Positions 3,398 to 8,648 of a stretch of DNA of 42,586 nucleotides are shown here, in pieces (position 1 is the first letter of the stretch; each line of letters opens with the position of its first letter). Source of the stretch: a virus (taxonomy: Duplodnaviria; Heunggongvirae; Uroviricota; Caudoviricetes); IMG/VR virus record IMGVR_UViG_2541047870_000002; one strand, 5' to 3'. The notes under the pieces are model-generated. The model saw only the letters and a program-made list of their open reading frames with translations, searched no databases and was not told where the DNA came from. The position numbers were made by a program, and so were the translations under genes.

Positions 3398-3525
3398 TTT
3401 GTTCTCCACGTTATTTGCGCTGCACCGCACTGAATTCTGGTAAAAGGAAGCCCTCACCATCCGGCGATTATTGAGTTAATTACGTTTCCATAAATGCCCC
3501 CGCAGGGGCATTTGCAGTAATCAAA

Positions 3526-4350
3526 TCAGGCGGTGAAAGTACCAATAAAGGTTTCTACTTTGCTGTCTTTGAATTTCTCAACAAGCAGATCGCGAAATTC
3601 GTTAGCCATTTCTTCCTGCACCGCCTCCATCTGAATAATGCGCAGAACAAGTACAGGACGATCGCCAGTGATAATGCTGAGGCGTAATTTAAAAGAACGT
3701 TCTTTCAGACCTTCAAACGGAACGCATTTAAATTCAAATGCCACTGGCATAATGTCTTTGGTCTTCGCTTCGACAGACTCCATCAGGGAGCGTTTGCCGC
3801 TGAAGTCATTATCTTCAAAATCAGCGGTCTGGTTTGCTTCAATCGTGATTTTACGGACAGCCGCAGCCGCTTTTGTTGCCTGGATAGCGTCACCATTAGC
3901 ATCAAAACCCACAAGGTAGTCGGCCCAGTCTTCAATCCATTCTGCCAGTGACTTCTGGGAGTTACGCTCGCTGTTAACAGACAACAGTGCAGAGAACGGT
4001 GCTGTCTTTTTCAGTTTGAGAGTGGCGGTGTTATCTGCGTGACCTGGTTCATCAATAGTACCCAGGTTAAGCACACTGACGGCACGCATATTATCAGCAT
4101 CGATAAAGCAGCGGGTGCCTTCATCTGCAAGATCTTTAGAATAACGGGTAAAGTCATCGATGCTGGCAGTGGAAAGCGCACCACGGAAACGGAAGCGATT
4201 TAAATTAAATTTTTCCAGATCATGAATGCGGAAATTCTCAGGCAATGCCACAGCATCGGCACCAATCTTACTGATAATTTCATTAACACCCTGAGCAGAA
4301 ATAAGAGCATGGATTTGATTAATTGCGGTTGCGTCTAAGTTCTGAGACAT
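3526..4350 (-). CDS. YfdQ-like prophage protein (DUF2303-type), function unknown
   Basis: 274-aa ORF; resembles from memory the CPS-53 prophage YfdQ family; gene order YfdP-like/YfdQ-like/HD hydrolase matches that prophage. Confidence 0.55.
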
Positions 4351-4415
4351 AATAAGTCCTCACTATATAAAGATATTCAGTGATGAGATAAATAATCAGT
4401 TAATTAAGAACGATA

Positions 4416-4778
4416 TTAATGACCTGCTGCGCGGAGTTTTCCGTCAGGTTCACCGGCAAGAGTCAGTAATTGTCCCTGGTCTTCCTGCAGAATAGTCAGG
4501 CGACCACCGCGATTGACATACATCGGCGTTTCGGTGGTGTCTTCTTCAGAAATTTTCCCGCGGTTAGTCGGGCGAACATATGAGAGTTTGTGTTTGATTT
4601 TCACACGGTTCTCATCAAATGGTTCGATTTCCAGGTTGAGTGAGACCTTACCTTTGGTTTTCGTGTTCATCACACCGGAAGCGACTTCACTGAGAACTGC
4701 GCCGATTTTGGTTTCAAATACGCCGCCGTCCAGCTCCCCGATAAATGCCTGCACATCAGTACTGCGTTCGCTAGCCAT
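4416..4778 (-). CDS. hypothetical early protein (YfdP-like), 120 aa
   Basis: Start at internal ATG with GAGGAG RBS; the upstream extension of the 226-aa track ORF is Arg/Cys-rich junk. Confidence 0.5.
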   Translation of the reverse strand: MASERSTDVQAFIGELDGGVFETKIGAVLSEVASGVMNTKTKGKVSLNLEIEPFDENRVKIKHKLSYVRPTNRGKISEEDTTETPMYVNRGGRLTILQEDQGQLLTLAGEPDGKLRAAGH

Positions 4779-4827
4779 TTTGCTGCTCCTCATCATATCG
4801 ACCCTGCAAGGCCGATTAGTTTCTCCA

Positions 4828-4914
4828 CAAAACAGAGAAGAACACCTGCGGTGGCAGCCGCCCGGATGGATTGAGTTATGAGCCCGTCGTCCGGTGATGC
4901 TCTTCTCTGTTTTG
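4828..4914. repeat. long inverted repeat (about 14-16 bp arms, about 55 nt loop) in GC-rich non-coding block
   Basis: caaaacagagaagaac … gctcttctctgttttg are reverse complements; region 4780-5246 lacks a credible ORF. Confidence 0.5.
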
Positions 4915-5179
4915 TAAAAAGGACGGTACCAGCCGGAAGCAAGGGTACAAGCTGGTACCGCCAAGACTACACACAGCATAAAGTTGTGGTGCCGGGTGCC
5001 TCCCGGTGCCTGGCGAAGGTTGCACACCAGGCGGGTGGGTATCCACAGAAGGTCGACTGTCAGCCTCAACCTTAACCCGCGTGCGCTGAGCAGCATTCAC
5101 CACAACGCTAAGGATTCTCTCTGGTTGAAAATACTTAGCTGTTATGTGCCTGCTTTTAGCCACATCAGGCGAGGTGGAC

Positions 5180-5232
5180 CTGGTTATTCCCCAACAACAA
5201 GGATTCGGTTAATCTGGTTATCCCCAACAACG
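5180..5232. promoter_or_regulatory. two direct repeats CTGGTTAT(T)CCCCAACAAC spaced 34 bp, immediately upstream of the 144-aa gene
   Basis: Near-identical 18/19-mers at 5180-5199 and 5214-5232; RBS and ATG of 5247 gene follow. Confidence 0.45.
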
Positions 5233-5246
5233 CAAAAGGAAAAGAA

Positions 5247-5681
5247 ATGTCCGGTAATATCTACACGTTGTACAAATCCCACTGTGAAAATGTTGGAAAG
5301 TATCGGGGCATTGAAATCAGTGGGATAGTGTCATCAGTCGAAATAAGCAAAGTGGAATCAAGGGCAACATTACTTACTCTTCTGGATCTTGTCTTACATG
5401 AGCACCGGAAGAAATTCGGCACTCCCTATAATCAGTTGAATGGGAAAAAGGCTCTGGTTCACCTTATTCTGATGAAGCATCACTGGATGCCAAAACAGAT
5501 TAATGAGATGAAATTTGATGAACTTCTTCTTTCAATTCAGGATGAACTCACACTTGATAAAATAAGCGTAACCGCCCAGAAATTTTTAGATTATCGAGAC
5601 TGGAGATCACAAATTCATCACTTTGATGATTTTGACGAAAATGAATGGGATCCTAATTTGTCTGCACAATATCTAAAGTAA
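5247..5681 (+). CDS. hypothetical protein (reverse-oriented moron within the leftward early operon)
   Basis: 144-aa ORF with AAGGA RBS; AT-rich; no recognisable motif. Confidence 0.5.
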   Translation: MSGNIYTLYKSHCENVGKYRGIEISGIVSSVEISKVESRATLLTLLDLVLHEHRKKFGTPYNQLNGKKALVHLILMKHHWMPKQINEMKFDELLLSIQDELTLDKISVTAQKFLDYRDWRSQIHHFDDFDENEWDPNLSAQYLK

Positions 5682-5859
5682 CATCCTGTGATAAAACCGT
5701 GATTTCCTGATCCAGTTTTTTTAAGGAGTCTATTGTTTCCTGTCGATAAGACAGCACTTCACGAAGCTGGTTTATAGCTGCCAGCTTCTTTGTCATCCAC
5801 TCATAAATTTCCTCATCTGTGTAGCCAGGCGCGACGATTTTGGGTTCTGTTTTGTGCAT
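5653..5859 (-). CDS. small acidic protein, first gene of leftward early operon (N-position)
   Basis: Strong RBS GAGGAGGTG 5 nt before ATG at 5859; 68 aa; no arginine-rich motif; 3' end overlaps the convergent 144-aa gene. Confidence 0.5.
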   Translation of the reverse strand: MHKTEPKIVAPGYTDEEIYEWMTKKLAAINQLREVLSYRQETIDSLKKLDQEITVLSQDVTLDIVQTN

Positions 5860-5904
5860 TTCACACCTCCTCAAGTTATCAGTTACTTGTTGATGGGGAC
5901 CAGA

Positions 5905-5942
5905 TTGTTAAAGAGCTAAGCGTCCTGTAGGGCGCTTTTTTG
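5905..5942 (-). promoter_or_regulatory. boxA-like element (GCTCTTTAACAA on minus strand) with adjacent hairpin: candidate nutL; the same hairpin plus T6 reads as an intrinsic terminator on the plus strand
   Basis: Minus-strand RNA would read …GCGCCCUACAGGACGCUUAGCUCUUUAACAA…; hairpin 5919-5936 followed by TTTTTT on plus strand. Confidence 0.4.
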
Positions 5943-6016
5943 TTGCTAACGAATCATCCTGGACTTCATATGCCCCAGGCGGCTACTTCGTGGGTGTCCT
6001 GCCTGTTCGTTGTCTT

Positions 6017-6080
6017 AACACCTTTAAGTTGTAATTTAGTTGTGGTTTTGAATGTTGTCAACAACTTTATGTGGTTTGAA
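6017..6080. promoter_or_regulatory. left operator cluster (OL-like): repeated AAGTTGT / ACAACTT half-sites
   Basis: Motifs cacctttaagttgt, tagttgtgg, caacaactttatgtgg are near-identical to motifs in the cI-cro intergenic region. Confidence 0.5.
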
Positions 6081-6124
6081 CGAGTAGCCAAGGAGTGCAA
6101 GGATTATCAAAAAAAGGAGGTTGT

Positions 6125-7015
6125 ATGGAAGACGCGCTTTACGCTTTTAATTACACACAGAACCGGGACAAGTTATTTGCTAACTTGATTAGCATCATTG
6201 ATGGAATCATTGCAGATGGAGTTGTCCGTGAAGAGGAGGTTCTTTACTTAGATACATGGTTACTTGAAGCAAAGCAGATTATCAATAATGGAGTTATAAA
6301 AAGTCTATCTGCTCGGGTGTCGGATATTCTTGCGGATGGAATAATCACATCAGAAGAACGTGATGACCTTAAAAATAGCCTTCTCCAAATACAGAGGGAA
6401 ATTCTTGATATCCCTGAAATTGATTTTTACTCCAAGGATGTAGATGTCCATTTACTTAATGGACTATGTAAAGGATTAATTGCTGATCGGAACTTAACTC
6501 AAGAAGAAATAAGATATCTTAATTGGTGGCTTGAGCAAAATGGAGCTTTGAAGAACAACTACCCAGGAAAAAAACTTTATGCACTTGTAAAGGAAATTCT
6601 TAAAGATGGTGTTATTACTGAAGATGAGAGTTTAACTCTACATAAGGCATTAGTAGACTTCACAGGATGTGACTTGGAAAGTGGGGTGGTGGATGGTTTG
6701 GCGACCAGGCTGCCTATTGATGTAGGGGCTTCGATAGAGTTAGAGGGTAAAACCTATTGTCTTACAGGCACTTTTGTTGCAGGAAAGAGAGCCGTAGTTG
6801 AAAATTTGATTAAAAATGCTGGTGGGAACATCAGTAGTGGAATTACTCAAAAGTTGGATTTTTTAGTAATTGGGACGCTTTCCTCCCGTGATTGGAAATT
6901 CTCTAGTCACGGAAGGAAGATCGAAAAGGCTATATCTTATAGGGATGATAATGGTGCAAAACTTAAAATTATTTCTGAAGAAATGCTTTTCGATGCATTA
7001 CCAAGTTCGCGATGA
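6125..7015 (+). CDS. TerB-like tandem repeat protein with C-terminal BRCT domain (immunity-region moron)
   Basis: Four repeats of the ADGxIxxEExxxL type in the N-terminal two thirds; C-terminal …GKTYCLTGTFVAGKRAVVENLIKNAGGNISSGITQKLDFLVIG… resembles the LigA-type BRCT fold; AGGAGG RBS before ATG at 6125 (ORF track starts at GTG 6095). Confidence 0.55.
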   Translation: MEDALYAFNYTQNRDKLFANLISIIDGIIADGVVREEEVLYLDTWLLEAKQIINNGVIKSLSARVSDILADGIITSEERDDLKNSLLQIQREILDIPEIDFYSKDVDVHLLNGLCKGLIADRNLTQEEIRYLNWWLEQNGALKNNYPGKKLYALVKEILKDGVITEDESLTLHKALVDFTGCDLESGVVDGLATRLPIDVGASIELEGKTYCLTGTFVAGKRAVVENLIKNAGGNISSGITQKLDFLVIGTLSSRDWKFSSHGRKIEKAISYRDDNGAKLKIISEEMLFDALPSSR

Positions 7016-7684
7016 CCAGAATACCCTACCTATAACATGAATTCTGGCTCGTCTATCTTCAAAGGTGAGTATTTCATCTGGGTACTCATCTTTGTTGAAG
7101 CTTCTAAGAATCAAGCCACCGTCAGGTAAGTTGATAAGTATTTTAACCCTTAGCAATACACCATCTCGTACGGCATAAAGATCGCCATCACGAATAGGAA
7201 CGGTTTGAGAAATATCAACGGCAACAAGATCTCCATTATTGAGAACCGGTAATAAACTGTTCCCCCATATTTGTACGATCTTGGCATTAGATGCACATAC
7301 GCCAGATTTTCTCAAATCTGCTCTTCTTAACGGAAACCAGTCAATAGCTGATTCAACTATTTCAGCCAGACATCCGTTACCTGCCGATAACTCGACATCT
7401 AAAACAGGAATGTTTACGAAAATATCGGGGTCTAATGCGGTGCTTTCTGCTTCTTTTACAACAAGATCAGGTATGGATGCGTTGTCTTCAATACCAAGTT
7501 GTAACCACTTTTGTGATACACCTAAAACTTTTGCAATTTCTTTAATTTTGCGCGGTTGTAGAGTTTCGCCATTCTCTATTTTGGCTACAGATTGTTGTGA
7601 AAGTCCAATTTTTTCAGCTAGTTGAGCTTGGCTCATGCCAGCTTTCTCTCTACCTATCTTTAATCGTTCTGCCAGTGTTTTCAC
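6998..7684 (-). CDS. cI: CI-like prophage repressor (N-terminal HTH_XRE, C-terminal S24/LexA-like self-cleaving peptidase)
   Basis: HTH …MSQAQLAEKIGLSQQSVAKIENG…; C-terminal peptidase-like domain; GTG start with GAGGG RBS; divergent from cro. Confidence 0.85.
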   Translation of the reverse strand: MKTLAERLKIGREKAGMSQAQLAEKIGLSQQSVAKIENGETLQPRKIKEIAKVLGVSQKWLQLGIEDNASIPDLVVKEAESTALDPDIFVNIPVLDVELSAGNGCLAEIVESAIDWFPLRRADLRKSGVCASNAKIVQIWGNSLLPVLNNGDLVAVDISQTVPIRDGDLYAVRDGVLLRVKILINLPDGGLILRSFNKDEYPDEILTFEDRRARIHVIGRVFWSSRTW

Positions 7685-7710
7685 AACATATCCCTCTCTT
7701 TTTTGATGAG

Positions 7711-7800
7711 GTTACAACTTTATGTTTTAGCTTTCCAACACCTAAAAGTTGTGGTAAAAGTTGTTAATGTTGTATTCTTGCAGCTCGTAACAACTTAACT
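7711..7800. promoter_or_regulatory. right operator cluster (OR-like) with divergent promoters for cI and cro
   Basis: Repeats ttacaactttatg, cacctaaaagttgtgg, aaagttgttaatgttg, cgtaacaactta between cI and cro starts. Confidence 0.55.
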
Positions 7801-7819
7801 ACCAAAAAAGGAGAAAGCT

Positions 7820-8068
7820 ATGACACCTGAGCAATTAGCCTTATCGGAGGCAATCGCTCTGGCTGGTGGTCAATCAGAATTGGCTCGGAAGCTCACAGCC
7901 AGCAGCGGTCATTTAGTAAAGCAACAACATGTCTGGAACTGGTTGAACAGAGAAAAGCGTCCCCCTGCAAAGCTCTCGATATTCATTGAAAAGACCACTG
8001 GCATATCAAAAGAAAAATTACGTCCAGATATTTTTCAAAAGATTAAAGATTCATCAGATGAAAAGTAA
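7820..8068 (+). CDS. cro: Cro-like HTH regulator
   Basis: 82-aa ORF divergent from cI, AAGGAG RBS, small basic HTH protein. Confidence 0.65.
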   Translation: MTPEQLALSEAIALAGGQSELARKLTASSGHLVKQQHVWNWLNREKRPPAKLSIFIEKTTGISKEKLRPDIFQKIKDSSDEK

Positions 8069-8090
8069 CCACAGTTTTAAGGAGATAGCC

Positions 8091-8648
8091 GTGGGTAAGC
8101 ATCACTGGAAAATAGAAAAACAGCCTGAGTGGTACGTGAAAGCTGTCAGAAAAACTATCGCGGCGTTGCCGGGGGGTTACGCTGAAGCCGCTGACTGGCT
8201 GGATGTAACAGAGAACGCTTTATTCAACCGCCTTCGTGCAGATGGCGATCAGATTTTCCCGCTGGGATGGGCAATGGTTTTACAGCGTGCTGGTGGCACT
8301 CACTTCATTGCTGATGCTGTGGCGCAGTCTGCAAATGGCGTCTTTGTGTCTCTTCCTGACGTCGAGGATGTGGACAACGCCGATATTAACCAGCGTCTGC
8401 TGGAAGTCATTGAACAGATCGGCAGTTATTCAAAACAGATTCGTTCAGCAATCGAAGACGGTGTAGTGGAACCGCATGAGAAGACAGCAATTAACGACGA
8501 GCTGTATCTCTCAATTTCGAAGCTGCAGGAACATGCAGCACTTGTCTACAAAATTTTTTGCATTTCAGAAAGTAATGACGCCCGCGAGTGTGCAGCTCCG
8601 GGCGTCGTGGCGTCGATTGCTTCTGGTTGTGGAGAAACTAACGCATGA
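8091..8648 (+). CDS. CII-position regulatory protein (YmfL-like), function uncertain
   Basis: GTG start with AAGGAG RBS just after cro (ORF track 7986..8648); position equivalent to cII. Confidence 0.4.

Follow-up and report, generated by a model that had tools for sequence, protein, structure and literature searches.

The question raised by positions 4780-5246 of the window, the whole 42,586-nt stretch of Caudoviricetes DNA analysed here (IMG/VR record IMGVR_UViG_2541047870_000002), is what a GC-rich block without credible genes encodes in the early-left region of a lambdoid prophage. The block is flanked by a yfdP-like gene on the minus strand (4416-4778) and by a gene for a protein of 144 amino acids (aa) on the plus strand (5247-5681). 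Its high GC content (0.52-0.57 across 4651-5250 in 300-nt windows, versus 0.39-0.43 on either side) and its lack of credible open reading frames (ORFs) were described correctly in a first-pass annotation made from the letters; the ORFs over it are the yfdP-like gene, over-extended at its N terminus, and ORFs of 65-114 aa. That annotation left a structured RNA, a site-specific recombination or protein-binding site and a regulatory region for the reversed accessory gene (moron) side by side as possibilities. Family relationships, structures, covariation, conservation and gene context point to an answer that we consider probable: the block encodes processed small RNAs (sRNAs) and an internal terminator within the early-left operon, joined to an accessory-gene control region. 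A structured RNA is strongly supported for 4827-5106, on the minus strand within the leftward early operon. Both RNA families concerned are already known, while the copy in the window is unannotated and the arrangement is new.

The STnc100-family RNA and its relatives

A scan with Rfam at gathering thresholds gave no match in the window. The RNA nevertheless resolves into two known families, one STnc100-like and one DicF-like, plus a long hairpin. Below its curated cut-off STnc100 (RF02076) was matched with 41.9 bits (E 2.4e-7 in a 1.5-kb search) by an alignment to 4913-5136 on the minus strand, which includes the terminator described below and covers the full model (positions 1-206 of 206). 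When the whole window was searched on both strands with all 4227 families the E value was 6.9e-6, and this was the sole match in the window. Because the score is under the gathering cut-off, the RNA is filed as a divergent relative or subfamily of STnc100, not as a curated-threshold member.

The Rfam match, the family alignment and covariation place the STnc100-family RNA at 4983-5106 on the minus strand, and all elements of the family are present in this copy. It is closed by helix P1 (5098-5106 with 4983-4991; GUUGUGGUG/CACCACAAC), after which a GAAU joint leads to hairpin P2 (5079-5094), which is of a GC type (GCGG..CGC). Pseudoknot strand a (5067-5073, AAGGUUG) comes next, followed by hairpin P4 (5026-5032/5008-5014), the loop of which holds strand a' (5016-5022, CAACCUU) that pairs with a, and by hairpin P5 (4992-5006, CCGGG-AGGCA-CCCGG). 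The motifs GUGAAU and CACCGGGAGGCACCCGGCAC were also found. P1, P2, P4 and P5 all appear in the minimum-energy fold. The case for STnc100 rests on the model match and covariation and not on thermodynamics; since the latter is indecisive, the strand call for this part rests on the covariance model, the orientation of the terminator and the gene context.

Relatives were gathered from IMG/VR by two motifs, which yielded 168 matches, 103 of them distinct, and 51 after dereplication. They share the order P1, GAAU joint, P2 (loop CUNNGCG), strand a, a variable insert of one or more hairpins, P4 with the complementary strand a' in its loop, and an invariant P5 (CCGGG-AGGCA-CCCGG) that stacks on P1. 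The joints and loops GUGAAU, CUNNGCG and CACCGGGAGGCACCCGGCAC are likewise invariant in the family. Among the 51 members (alignment A1), standard pairs fill 85.3% of the cells of P1, P2 and P5 versus 72.8% in shuffles, and two-sided changes were counted in 171 cells versus 76 in shuffles. The covariation score was 0.361 versus 0.148 for shuffles; none of 500 shuffles reached the observed value and all slid controls stayed at or below 0.171. P5 was fixed by the search pattern save one pair, and this free pair is complementary in 51 of 51 sequences (G-C in 43, U-A in 8). The P4 stems and the a/a' pairing vary jointly through about a dozen sequence versions, with a mean complementarity of 7.1 nt for cognate strands versus 5.2 nt for non-cognate strands and 4.9 nt for shuffled loops. 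The interior of the RNA is swapped wholesale among relatives with the helices kept. Covariation analysis across relatives, which had been suggested as a check, thus revealed compensatory changes as expected of RNA helices.

The family is deployed in two ways. A TAnnnT hexamer was found a few bases upstream of GUGAAU in 32 of 112 distinct type-A members; in 21 of those 32 it ends exactly 9 nt before GUGAAU, usually with TTGACN another 17-18 bp upstream of the hexamer. These 32 members have a short P1 (mean 6.6 bp), whereas P1 is longer in the 80 members without the hexamer, the window copy included (12.5 bp on average, with 21 bp in copies of the Qin type). This split between promoter-bearing and promoterless members means that the family comprises both stand-alone genes and operon-embedded copies. 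By its sequence the window copy, which has no TAnnnT/TTGACN promoter at the canonical position, is assigned to the latter. A terminator was found 35-90 nt downstream in 63 of 126 distinct members, and in 7 of the 15 that are strictly promoter-bearing. Some phages carry tandem arrays of 2-4 copies, and some copies lie beside tRNA genes or tRNA gene arrays. An ORF-based test of the co-orientation of members with their neighbours was too noisy to use.

Relatives of a second type, type B, occur in mEp460 and other phages. They keep P1 and GUGAAU, their P2 and P5 sequences differ and their interiors are unrelated; an Rfam scan did not detect them as STnc100. Type-B scaffolds were noted in IMG/VR at the loci L114, L098, L034, L119, L215 and L134; some of the scaffolds adjoin tRNA gene arrays or form tandem sets of 3-4 copies. 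Just upstream of some type-B members, and not of the window copy, lies a boxA-like UGCUCUUU. Of the type-B interiors, that of L114 resembles a 16S rRNA fragment and that of L098 has two hairpins like the T-arm of a tRNA.

Canonical STnc100 is located 75 nt downstream of stx2B (PMC12370729) and overlaps the Hfq-bound sRNA EcOnc27 (PMC12711010). A common origin of STnc100 and PasD, an sRNA of enteropathogenic Escherichia coli (EPEC), has been proposed (10.64898/2026.05.13.724894).

The DicF-like module, its terminator and the long hairpin

A second module, recognized by a custom covariance model as a member of the DicF sRNA family, occupies 4916-4978 on the minus strand. It consists of a single-stranded 5' part, UGCUGUGUGUAGUCUU (4963-4978), a terminator stem (4951-4962/4922-4933) and the U-run UUUUU (4920-4916). 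The stem is the perfect 9-bp hairpin of the first-pass annotation; it is present with 10 perfect base pairs (4924-4933/4951-4960), the end given near 4955 being a few bases short, and reaches 12-13 bp when one G-U pair is included (4922-4933/4951-4962). A GC-rich hairpin followed by UUUUU on the minus strand makes this an intrinsic (Rho-independent) terminator by the usual criterion. A consensus scan for promoters and terminators detected no promoter within the block and overlooked this terminator (4916-4962) because of its 17-nt loop. The module folds with -23.2 kcal/mol (z -3.4). It lies on the same strand as, and between, the region of the early-left promoter (PL) and the yfdP-like gene, xis and int.

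A blastn-short comparison of K-12 DicF with the window gave no significant match. The K-12 and window sequences are bridged by variants that occupy the place of dicF in Qin-like operons, and a covariance model (R1) was made from K-12 DicF and nine such variants, 10 sequences in all and none of the window type. R1 gave a full-length match at 4916-4978 on the minus strand with 37.6 bits and E 4.5e-8, an E value that is rough owing to a shortened calibration. The corresponding scores were 39.3 bits in SfV and 23.1 bits in mEp460. These matches argue for homology of the module to DicF, recovered only via a profile of intermediates.

Qin DicF is cut out of an operon transcript, and DicF is a regulator of cell division, of metabolism and of virulence in enterohaemorrhagic E. 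coli (EHEC). In the Qin prophage of K-12 the 170 nt between dicF and dicB matched STnc100 with 34.4 bits (E 6.9e-5), and the adjoining DicF scored 76.7 bits. The two RNA families are thus adjacent in Qin as well, between ydfC and dicB, in an order opposite to that in the window, and no terminator follows the STnc100-like RNA there. This Qin RNA, at L125 2943-3090 right after dicF, is unannotated. Cutting by RNase III 19 nt beyond the end of the 53-nt form generates the 3' end of a 72-nt DicF (PMC5069750). Counted from the annotated 5' end of DicF, 72 nt lead to L125 position 2954, inside the 5' strand of P1 (2943-2963), and from these coordinates RNase III would cut the 21-bp P1 of the Qin copy.

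Between the terminator and the yfdP-like gene lies a long hairpin with a Y-shaped apex (4827-4915, minus strand), found as an inverted repeat and by folding. The first-pass annotation had noticed the inverted repeat with arms of 14-16 bp; the arms are in fact 25 nt long (4827-4851 and 4891-4915), 84% complementary as DNA and 39 nt apart. As RNA, with G-U pairs counted, they pair almost continuously, and a nearly unbroken duplex of about 20 bp or more is typical of an RNase III substrate. The minus-strand RNA folds with -47.2 kcal/mol (z -6.9); the plus strand, at -39.3 kcal/mol, is 8 kcal/mol less stable. The hairpin is kept in ST64B with one double change from G-C to A-U and several one-sided, pairing-preserving changes, as judged by eye. 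By its length it is a predicted RNase III-type substrate, situated just upstream of the ribosome-binding site of the yfdP-like gene (GAGGAG, 4786-4791), which lies with the rest of the 5' untranslated region of that gene at 4779-4826 on the minus strand.

The apex of the long hairpin holds a conserved loop, GACGGGCUCAUAACUCAAUCCA (4867-4888, minus strand). Its consensus GACGGGCUCAUAAC(C/U)CAAUCCA turns up in further leader contexts, where the stems on either side are different in sequence and complementary. The part CGGGCUCAUAAC(C/U)C is identical or near-identical to the anticodon stem-loop of the initiator tRNA-fMet (metZ), the identity with the anticodon arm being 13/14 nt in the window and 14/14 nt in SfIV, and the loop region shows a weaker similarity to the 3' part of metZ tRNA. 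ARAGORN found no tRNA or transfer-messenger RNA in the window. The loop may mimic the tRNA, serve as a decoy or be a relic derived from a tRNA. The motif was also seen at loci L001, L003, L023, L038, L075 and L113, where the flanking stems covary.

The operon and the conservation of the block

The prophage is of the SfIV/SfV/SfII/ST64B kind, as judged from its sequence relatives. Its leftward minus-strand genes are int, xis, a yfdR-like gene, a yfdQ-like gene (DUF2303) and the yfdP-like gene, the product of which belongs to PHROG 204 and is named yfdP in RefSeq relatives; to the right of the block lie a LexA-type repressor gene (6998-7684, minus strand) and a cro-like gene (7820, plus strand). 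The best sigma-70 match in 4300-8200 was found at 6061-6033 on the minus strand (TTGACA-17-TAAATT). Operator-like AAGTTGT/ACAACTT motifs overlap it and are found again between cI and cro (7700-7790). Because it is the best match and shares these motifs with the cI-cro region, it was taken as the likely early-left promoter and operator (PL/OL).

A conserved leader RNA of ~62 nt follows PL (6010-5949, minus strand; ACGAACAGGCAGGAC.CCCACGAAGUAGCCGCC...GGAUGAUUCGU). It was found 10-20 nt downstream of PL in phages of at least 8 different operator/immunity types, with an outer stem and a second stem that covary; further copies were noted at L236 about 3425-3490 and L003 about 4600-4665. The PL leader also holds a perfect rrn-type boxA, GCUCUUUAACAA (5916-5905, minus strand); a 68-aa gene of PHROG 1744 (5653-5859, minus strand) begins ~45 nt downstream of it. 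At the N position of the window no arginine-rich N-like protein is evident.

Of 5426 complete E. coli genomes, 2781 contain the block, and so do SfII, SfIV and SfV, serotype-converting phages of Shigella. ST64B, mEp460 and SfV do not have the reversed 144-aa gene and carry the same non-coding block between cI/PL and the yfdP-like gene, with its RNA modules on the strand of the early-left genes. Conservation is mosaic. Positions 4780-4964, comprising the untranslated region and both hairpins, are ~95% identical and occur in far more phages than 4965-5177, among them mEp460, cdtI and Stx2 phages, and the sequence past 5177 is common to fewer phages still. All elements of the block, the repeats included, were thus found to be conserved in related prophages, where the first-pass annotation would have taken absent or unconserved repeats as a refutation. 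In RefSeq the block is labelled only as a 'frameshifted' hypothetical pseudogene (e.g. L241 3014-3324, NZ_CP116241), and in SfIV (L001 4637-5549) the hypothetical coding sequences SfIV_34 and SfIV_35 are annotated over it; these labels are likely annotation artefacts.

The right-hand end of the block is a conserved 95-bp cassette on the plus strand (5137-5231) that ends in two direct repeats, CTGGTTATTCCCCAACAAC (5180-5198) and CTGGTTATCCCCAACAAC (5214-5231), and is followed by a spacer and the ribosome-binding site of the 144-aa gene, AAAGGAAAAG (5232-5246). The two repeats had been recognized before; their motif occurs nowhere else in the window, with a chance expectation of 0.02 matches (at most 3 mismatches). 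Identity to the cassette is 98.9% in PhiR29/PhiR49, and it falls to 84-87% in Klebsiella Kp4882-1 and Salmonella F1055. In these relatives both repeat cores, AT(T)CCCCAACAAC, are kept, homology stops at the second repeat and a different plus-strand ORF starts within ~15 nt. Conservation of the cassette does not depend on either flank and extends to four phages with hosts in three genera (E. coli, Klebsiella and Salmonella), and folding revealed no significant RNA structure in it on either strand. Most economically, it is read as a candidate portable element, a promoter/operator or a leader, that serves rightward accessory genes. The suggestion of the first-pass annotation that the sequence regulates the reversed moron is accordingly plausible for 5137-5231 and not for the rest of the block. 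DnaA boxes, CII sites and iterons were weighed as readings of the direct repeats, and none fits well.

The product of the 144-aa gene belongs to PHROG 5286 and is named 'ECs1072 family phage-associated protein' in RefSeq. The gene is convergent with the 68-aa gene, their 3' ends overlapping at 5653-5681, and a terminator-like hairpin lies on the plus strand at 5918-5937. Between PL and cI lies a 306-aa gene with a C-terminal BRCT domain (PHROG 3989; 6095-7015, plus strand), convergent with the repressor gene, whose 3' end it overlaps; SfIV does not have it. The rightward operons of ST64B (L003 6731-6919) and mEp460 (L004 6674-6862) carry isrK and C4 antisense RNA above the Rfam cut-offs, and neither of these RNAs was found in the window.

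Proposed processing, rival explanations and known systems

In the reading that we favour, the derepressed PL (6061-6033) transcript would run leftward past the 68-aa gene and the antisense of the 144-aa gene. It would then yield, in order, an STnc100-family RNA of ~125 nt (P1 of 9-12 bp, three hairpins, a variable insert and a pseudoknot), a DicF-family sRNA and the 25-bp hairpin. By analogy with dicBF, RNase III, acting at P1 and at the long hairpin, and RNase E would excise the RNAs from the polycistronic transcript. The internal terminator would stop a fraction of the polymerases and set the 3' end of the DicF-like RNA; the remaining polymerases would read through and allow yfdP-yfdQ-yfdR-xis-int expression, possibly aided by the PL leader RNA and boxA. 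The released DicF-like RNA may act in trans as an Hfq-dependent base-pairing regulator of host mRNAs. The two direct repeats would be DNA-level or leader elements of a portable cassette before a plus-strand accessory gene.

Several findings weigh against this account. The STnc100 score of 41.9 bits is under the curated gathering cut-off of 47, and the DicF model of Rfam (RF00039) gave 19.4 bits (E 0.28, 4921-4975 on the minus strand) with a cut-off of 48 bits. P2 of the window has a U-C mismatch where relatives show G-C, and the STnc100-like part folds barely better than shuffles (z -1.8), its plus strand folding as well (z -2.2). The window does not preserve the ftsZ-pairing segment of DicF, and an RNAduplex test with ftsZ predicted no target, a test without power given that authentic DicF itself reached only z -0.95. 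Before it arrives at the block, the PL transcript must cover ~430 nt as antisense to the 144-aa gene, and with the module order reversed relative to Qin the details of processing may differ. A promoter scan found no consensus sigma-70 promoter for the 144-aa gene in the cassette. An own promoter for the RNAs would also count against transcription from PL.

Such a promoter is at the heart of the best surviving alternative, to which we give roughly one chance in five: a stand-alone, moron-like sRNA gene of ~220 nt, as in the Rfam STnc100 model, that is expressed in the lysogen independent of PL from a promoter just upstream of 5106-5136 and ends at the 4916-4962 terminator. About a fifth to a quarter of the family members clearly are of this sort, with a strong promoter at a fixed distance and often a terminator ~50 nt downstream, and the Rfam alignment in the window spans the whole model, terminator included. 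EcOnc27 and PasD are abundant and Hfq-bound in growing uninduced cells (PMC12711010; 10.64898/2026.05.13.724894). However, the window copy lacks the family promoter at its canonical place, its P1 is as long as is usual for embedded copies, and the promoter scan found none on the minus strand of 5100-5300. Moreover, the sequence upstream of P1 is conserved for only ~60 nt, and ST64B and mEp460 have other sequence there.

Structural features seen at the level of the family suggest that STnc100-type RNA is more than a simple base-pairing sRNA. One rather speculative proposal is that it is a modular pseudoknotted scaffold, with an invariant core and a swappable interior, which is either stand-alone or excised by RNase III and would bind a protein or ligand as a sensor, decoy or sponge; the initiator-tRNA-arm loop would then be a possible decoy for VapC-type anticodon nucleases or the ribosomal P site. 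Known elements with which the scaffold might be equated were rejected, by inspection only, on motif order or sequence: integron attC-like sites, enterobacterial repetitive intergenic consensus (ERIC) and repetitive extragenic palindromic (REP) elements, Y RNAs, K-turns, the hammerhead, twister and hepatitis delta virus (HDV) ribozymes, and lambda-type boxA/boxB nut sites.

Somewhat less likely still is a cis-acting sensor, riboswitch-like or protein-binding, in which the STnc100-like domain controls the downstream terminator and thereby gates the early-left genes. The ornate pseudoknotted fold with its invariant joints and loops fits such a role, as does the intrinsic terminator 35-90 nt downstream in half of the distinct members (63/126); on this reading 20-70 nt separate domain and terminator in the window. 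In the window two partners are available to the strand AAGGUUG, the P4 loop and a local ACCUU segment, and the choice between them could work as a switch. No anti-terminator pairing is evident, however, and the members are followed by genes without relation to one another (dicB, yfdP, a sialate esterase, tRNAs). Many copies are stand-alone units and some form the tandem arrays of 2-4, the Qin copy lacks a terminator after it, and a P1 of 9-21 bp, as in embedded copies, is unusually long for a ligand-gated helix.

A degraded or real protein-coding sequence or a DNA recombination site is very improbable: ORFs of 65-226 aa do cross the block, which is a coding sequence in SfIV and a pseudogene in RefSeq, but the substitutions are compensatory within helices and not codon-patterned, the interior is exchanged between relatives with the helices intact, covariance models match two RNA families, and nothing supports the recombination site once suggested, with no integrase or recombinase adjoining and the prophage integrase >2 kb to the left, across yfdP, yfdQ and yfdR.

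Recognition of the block as an sRNA cluster corrects a pseudogene or hypothetical-ORF annotation in about half of the complete E. coli genomes. It also links DicF and STnc100/PasD, which have been studied separately, as a shared, permutable genomic unit of early-left operons. The covarying pseudoknot, the variable interior and the split between copies with a short P1 and promoter and embedded copies with a long P1 offer handles on the function of STnc100-type RNA, the RNase III cut of 72-nt DicF being placed inside P1 of the Qin copy by coordinate count. If the scaffold proposal were true, early-left leaders would be home, in about half of E. coli genomes, to a class of phage riboregulator that has gone unrecognised.

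Among known systems, the put antiterminator RNAs of HK022 (PMC9378689) are the comparison for the PL leader. Like put, the leader is a two-stem RNA of ~65 nt right after PL in many heteroimmune phages, with a YCAGGAUGA motif. Its similarity to putL and putR is not significant (z 1.85 and 1.6, versus 10.3 for putL with putR), and a motif search that found both putL and putR in HK022 found one leader copy only in the window and none in its rightward operon; identity of the leader with HK022-type put was rejected on these grounds. The same identity was rejected for the structured RNA of the block, as Rfam shows no STnc100-like match in HK022.

With STnc100, including EcOnc27/sRNA103 of E. coli O157 and PasD of EPEC, the window RNA shares the helices and the motifs GGUGAAU and CACCGGGAGGCACCCGGCACC; it is likewise prophage-borne and followed by a terminator. 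It differs from canonical STnc100, which is found downstream of stx2/Q in the late region (PMC12370729), in its location in an early-left operon and in its P2, which is of the GC type rather than CCCC/GGGG. It differs from the stand-alone copies in having no family promoter of its own.

The PL transcript of lambda carries RNase III processing hairpins, in the N leader and in sib. Like these, the long hairpin of the window is near-perfect and lies in an untranslated part of the leftward early transcript before a ribosome-binding site. Unlike these, with which it has no sequence relationship, it has a loop at its apex resembling the initiator-tRNA anticodon arm, and its cleavage is a prediction.

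The dicBF operon of Qin differs from the window in that dicF comes first, whereas the STnc100-like RNA precedes the DicF-like RNA here, in the 5' single-stranded part and the hairpin loop of DicF, and in the downstream gene, which is dicB in Qin and yfdP-like in the window. The core UUGGCGGUAYCAG...CCG(Y)CCUUUUU is common to DicF in both, and in both an sRNA with a terminator stands beside an STnc100-like RNA in the repressor-controlled early-left operon of a lambdoid prophage.

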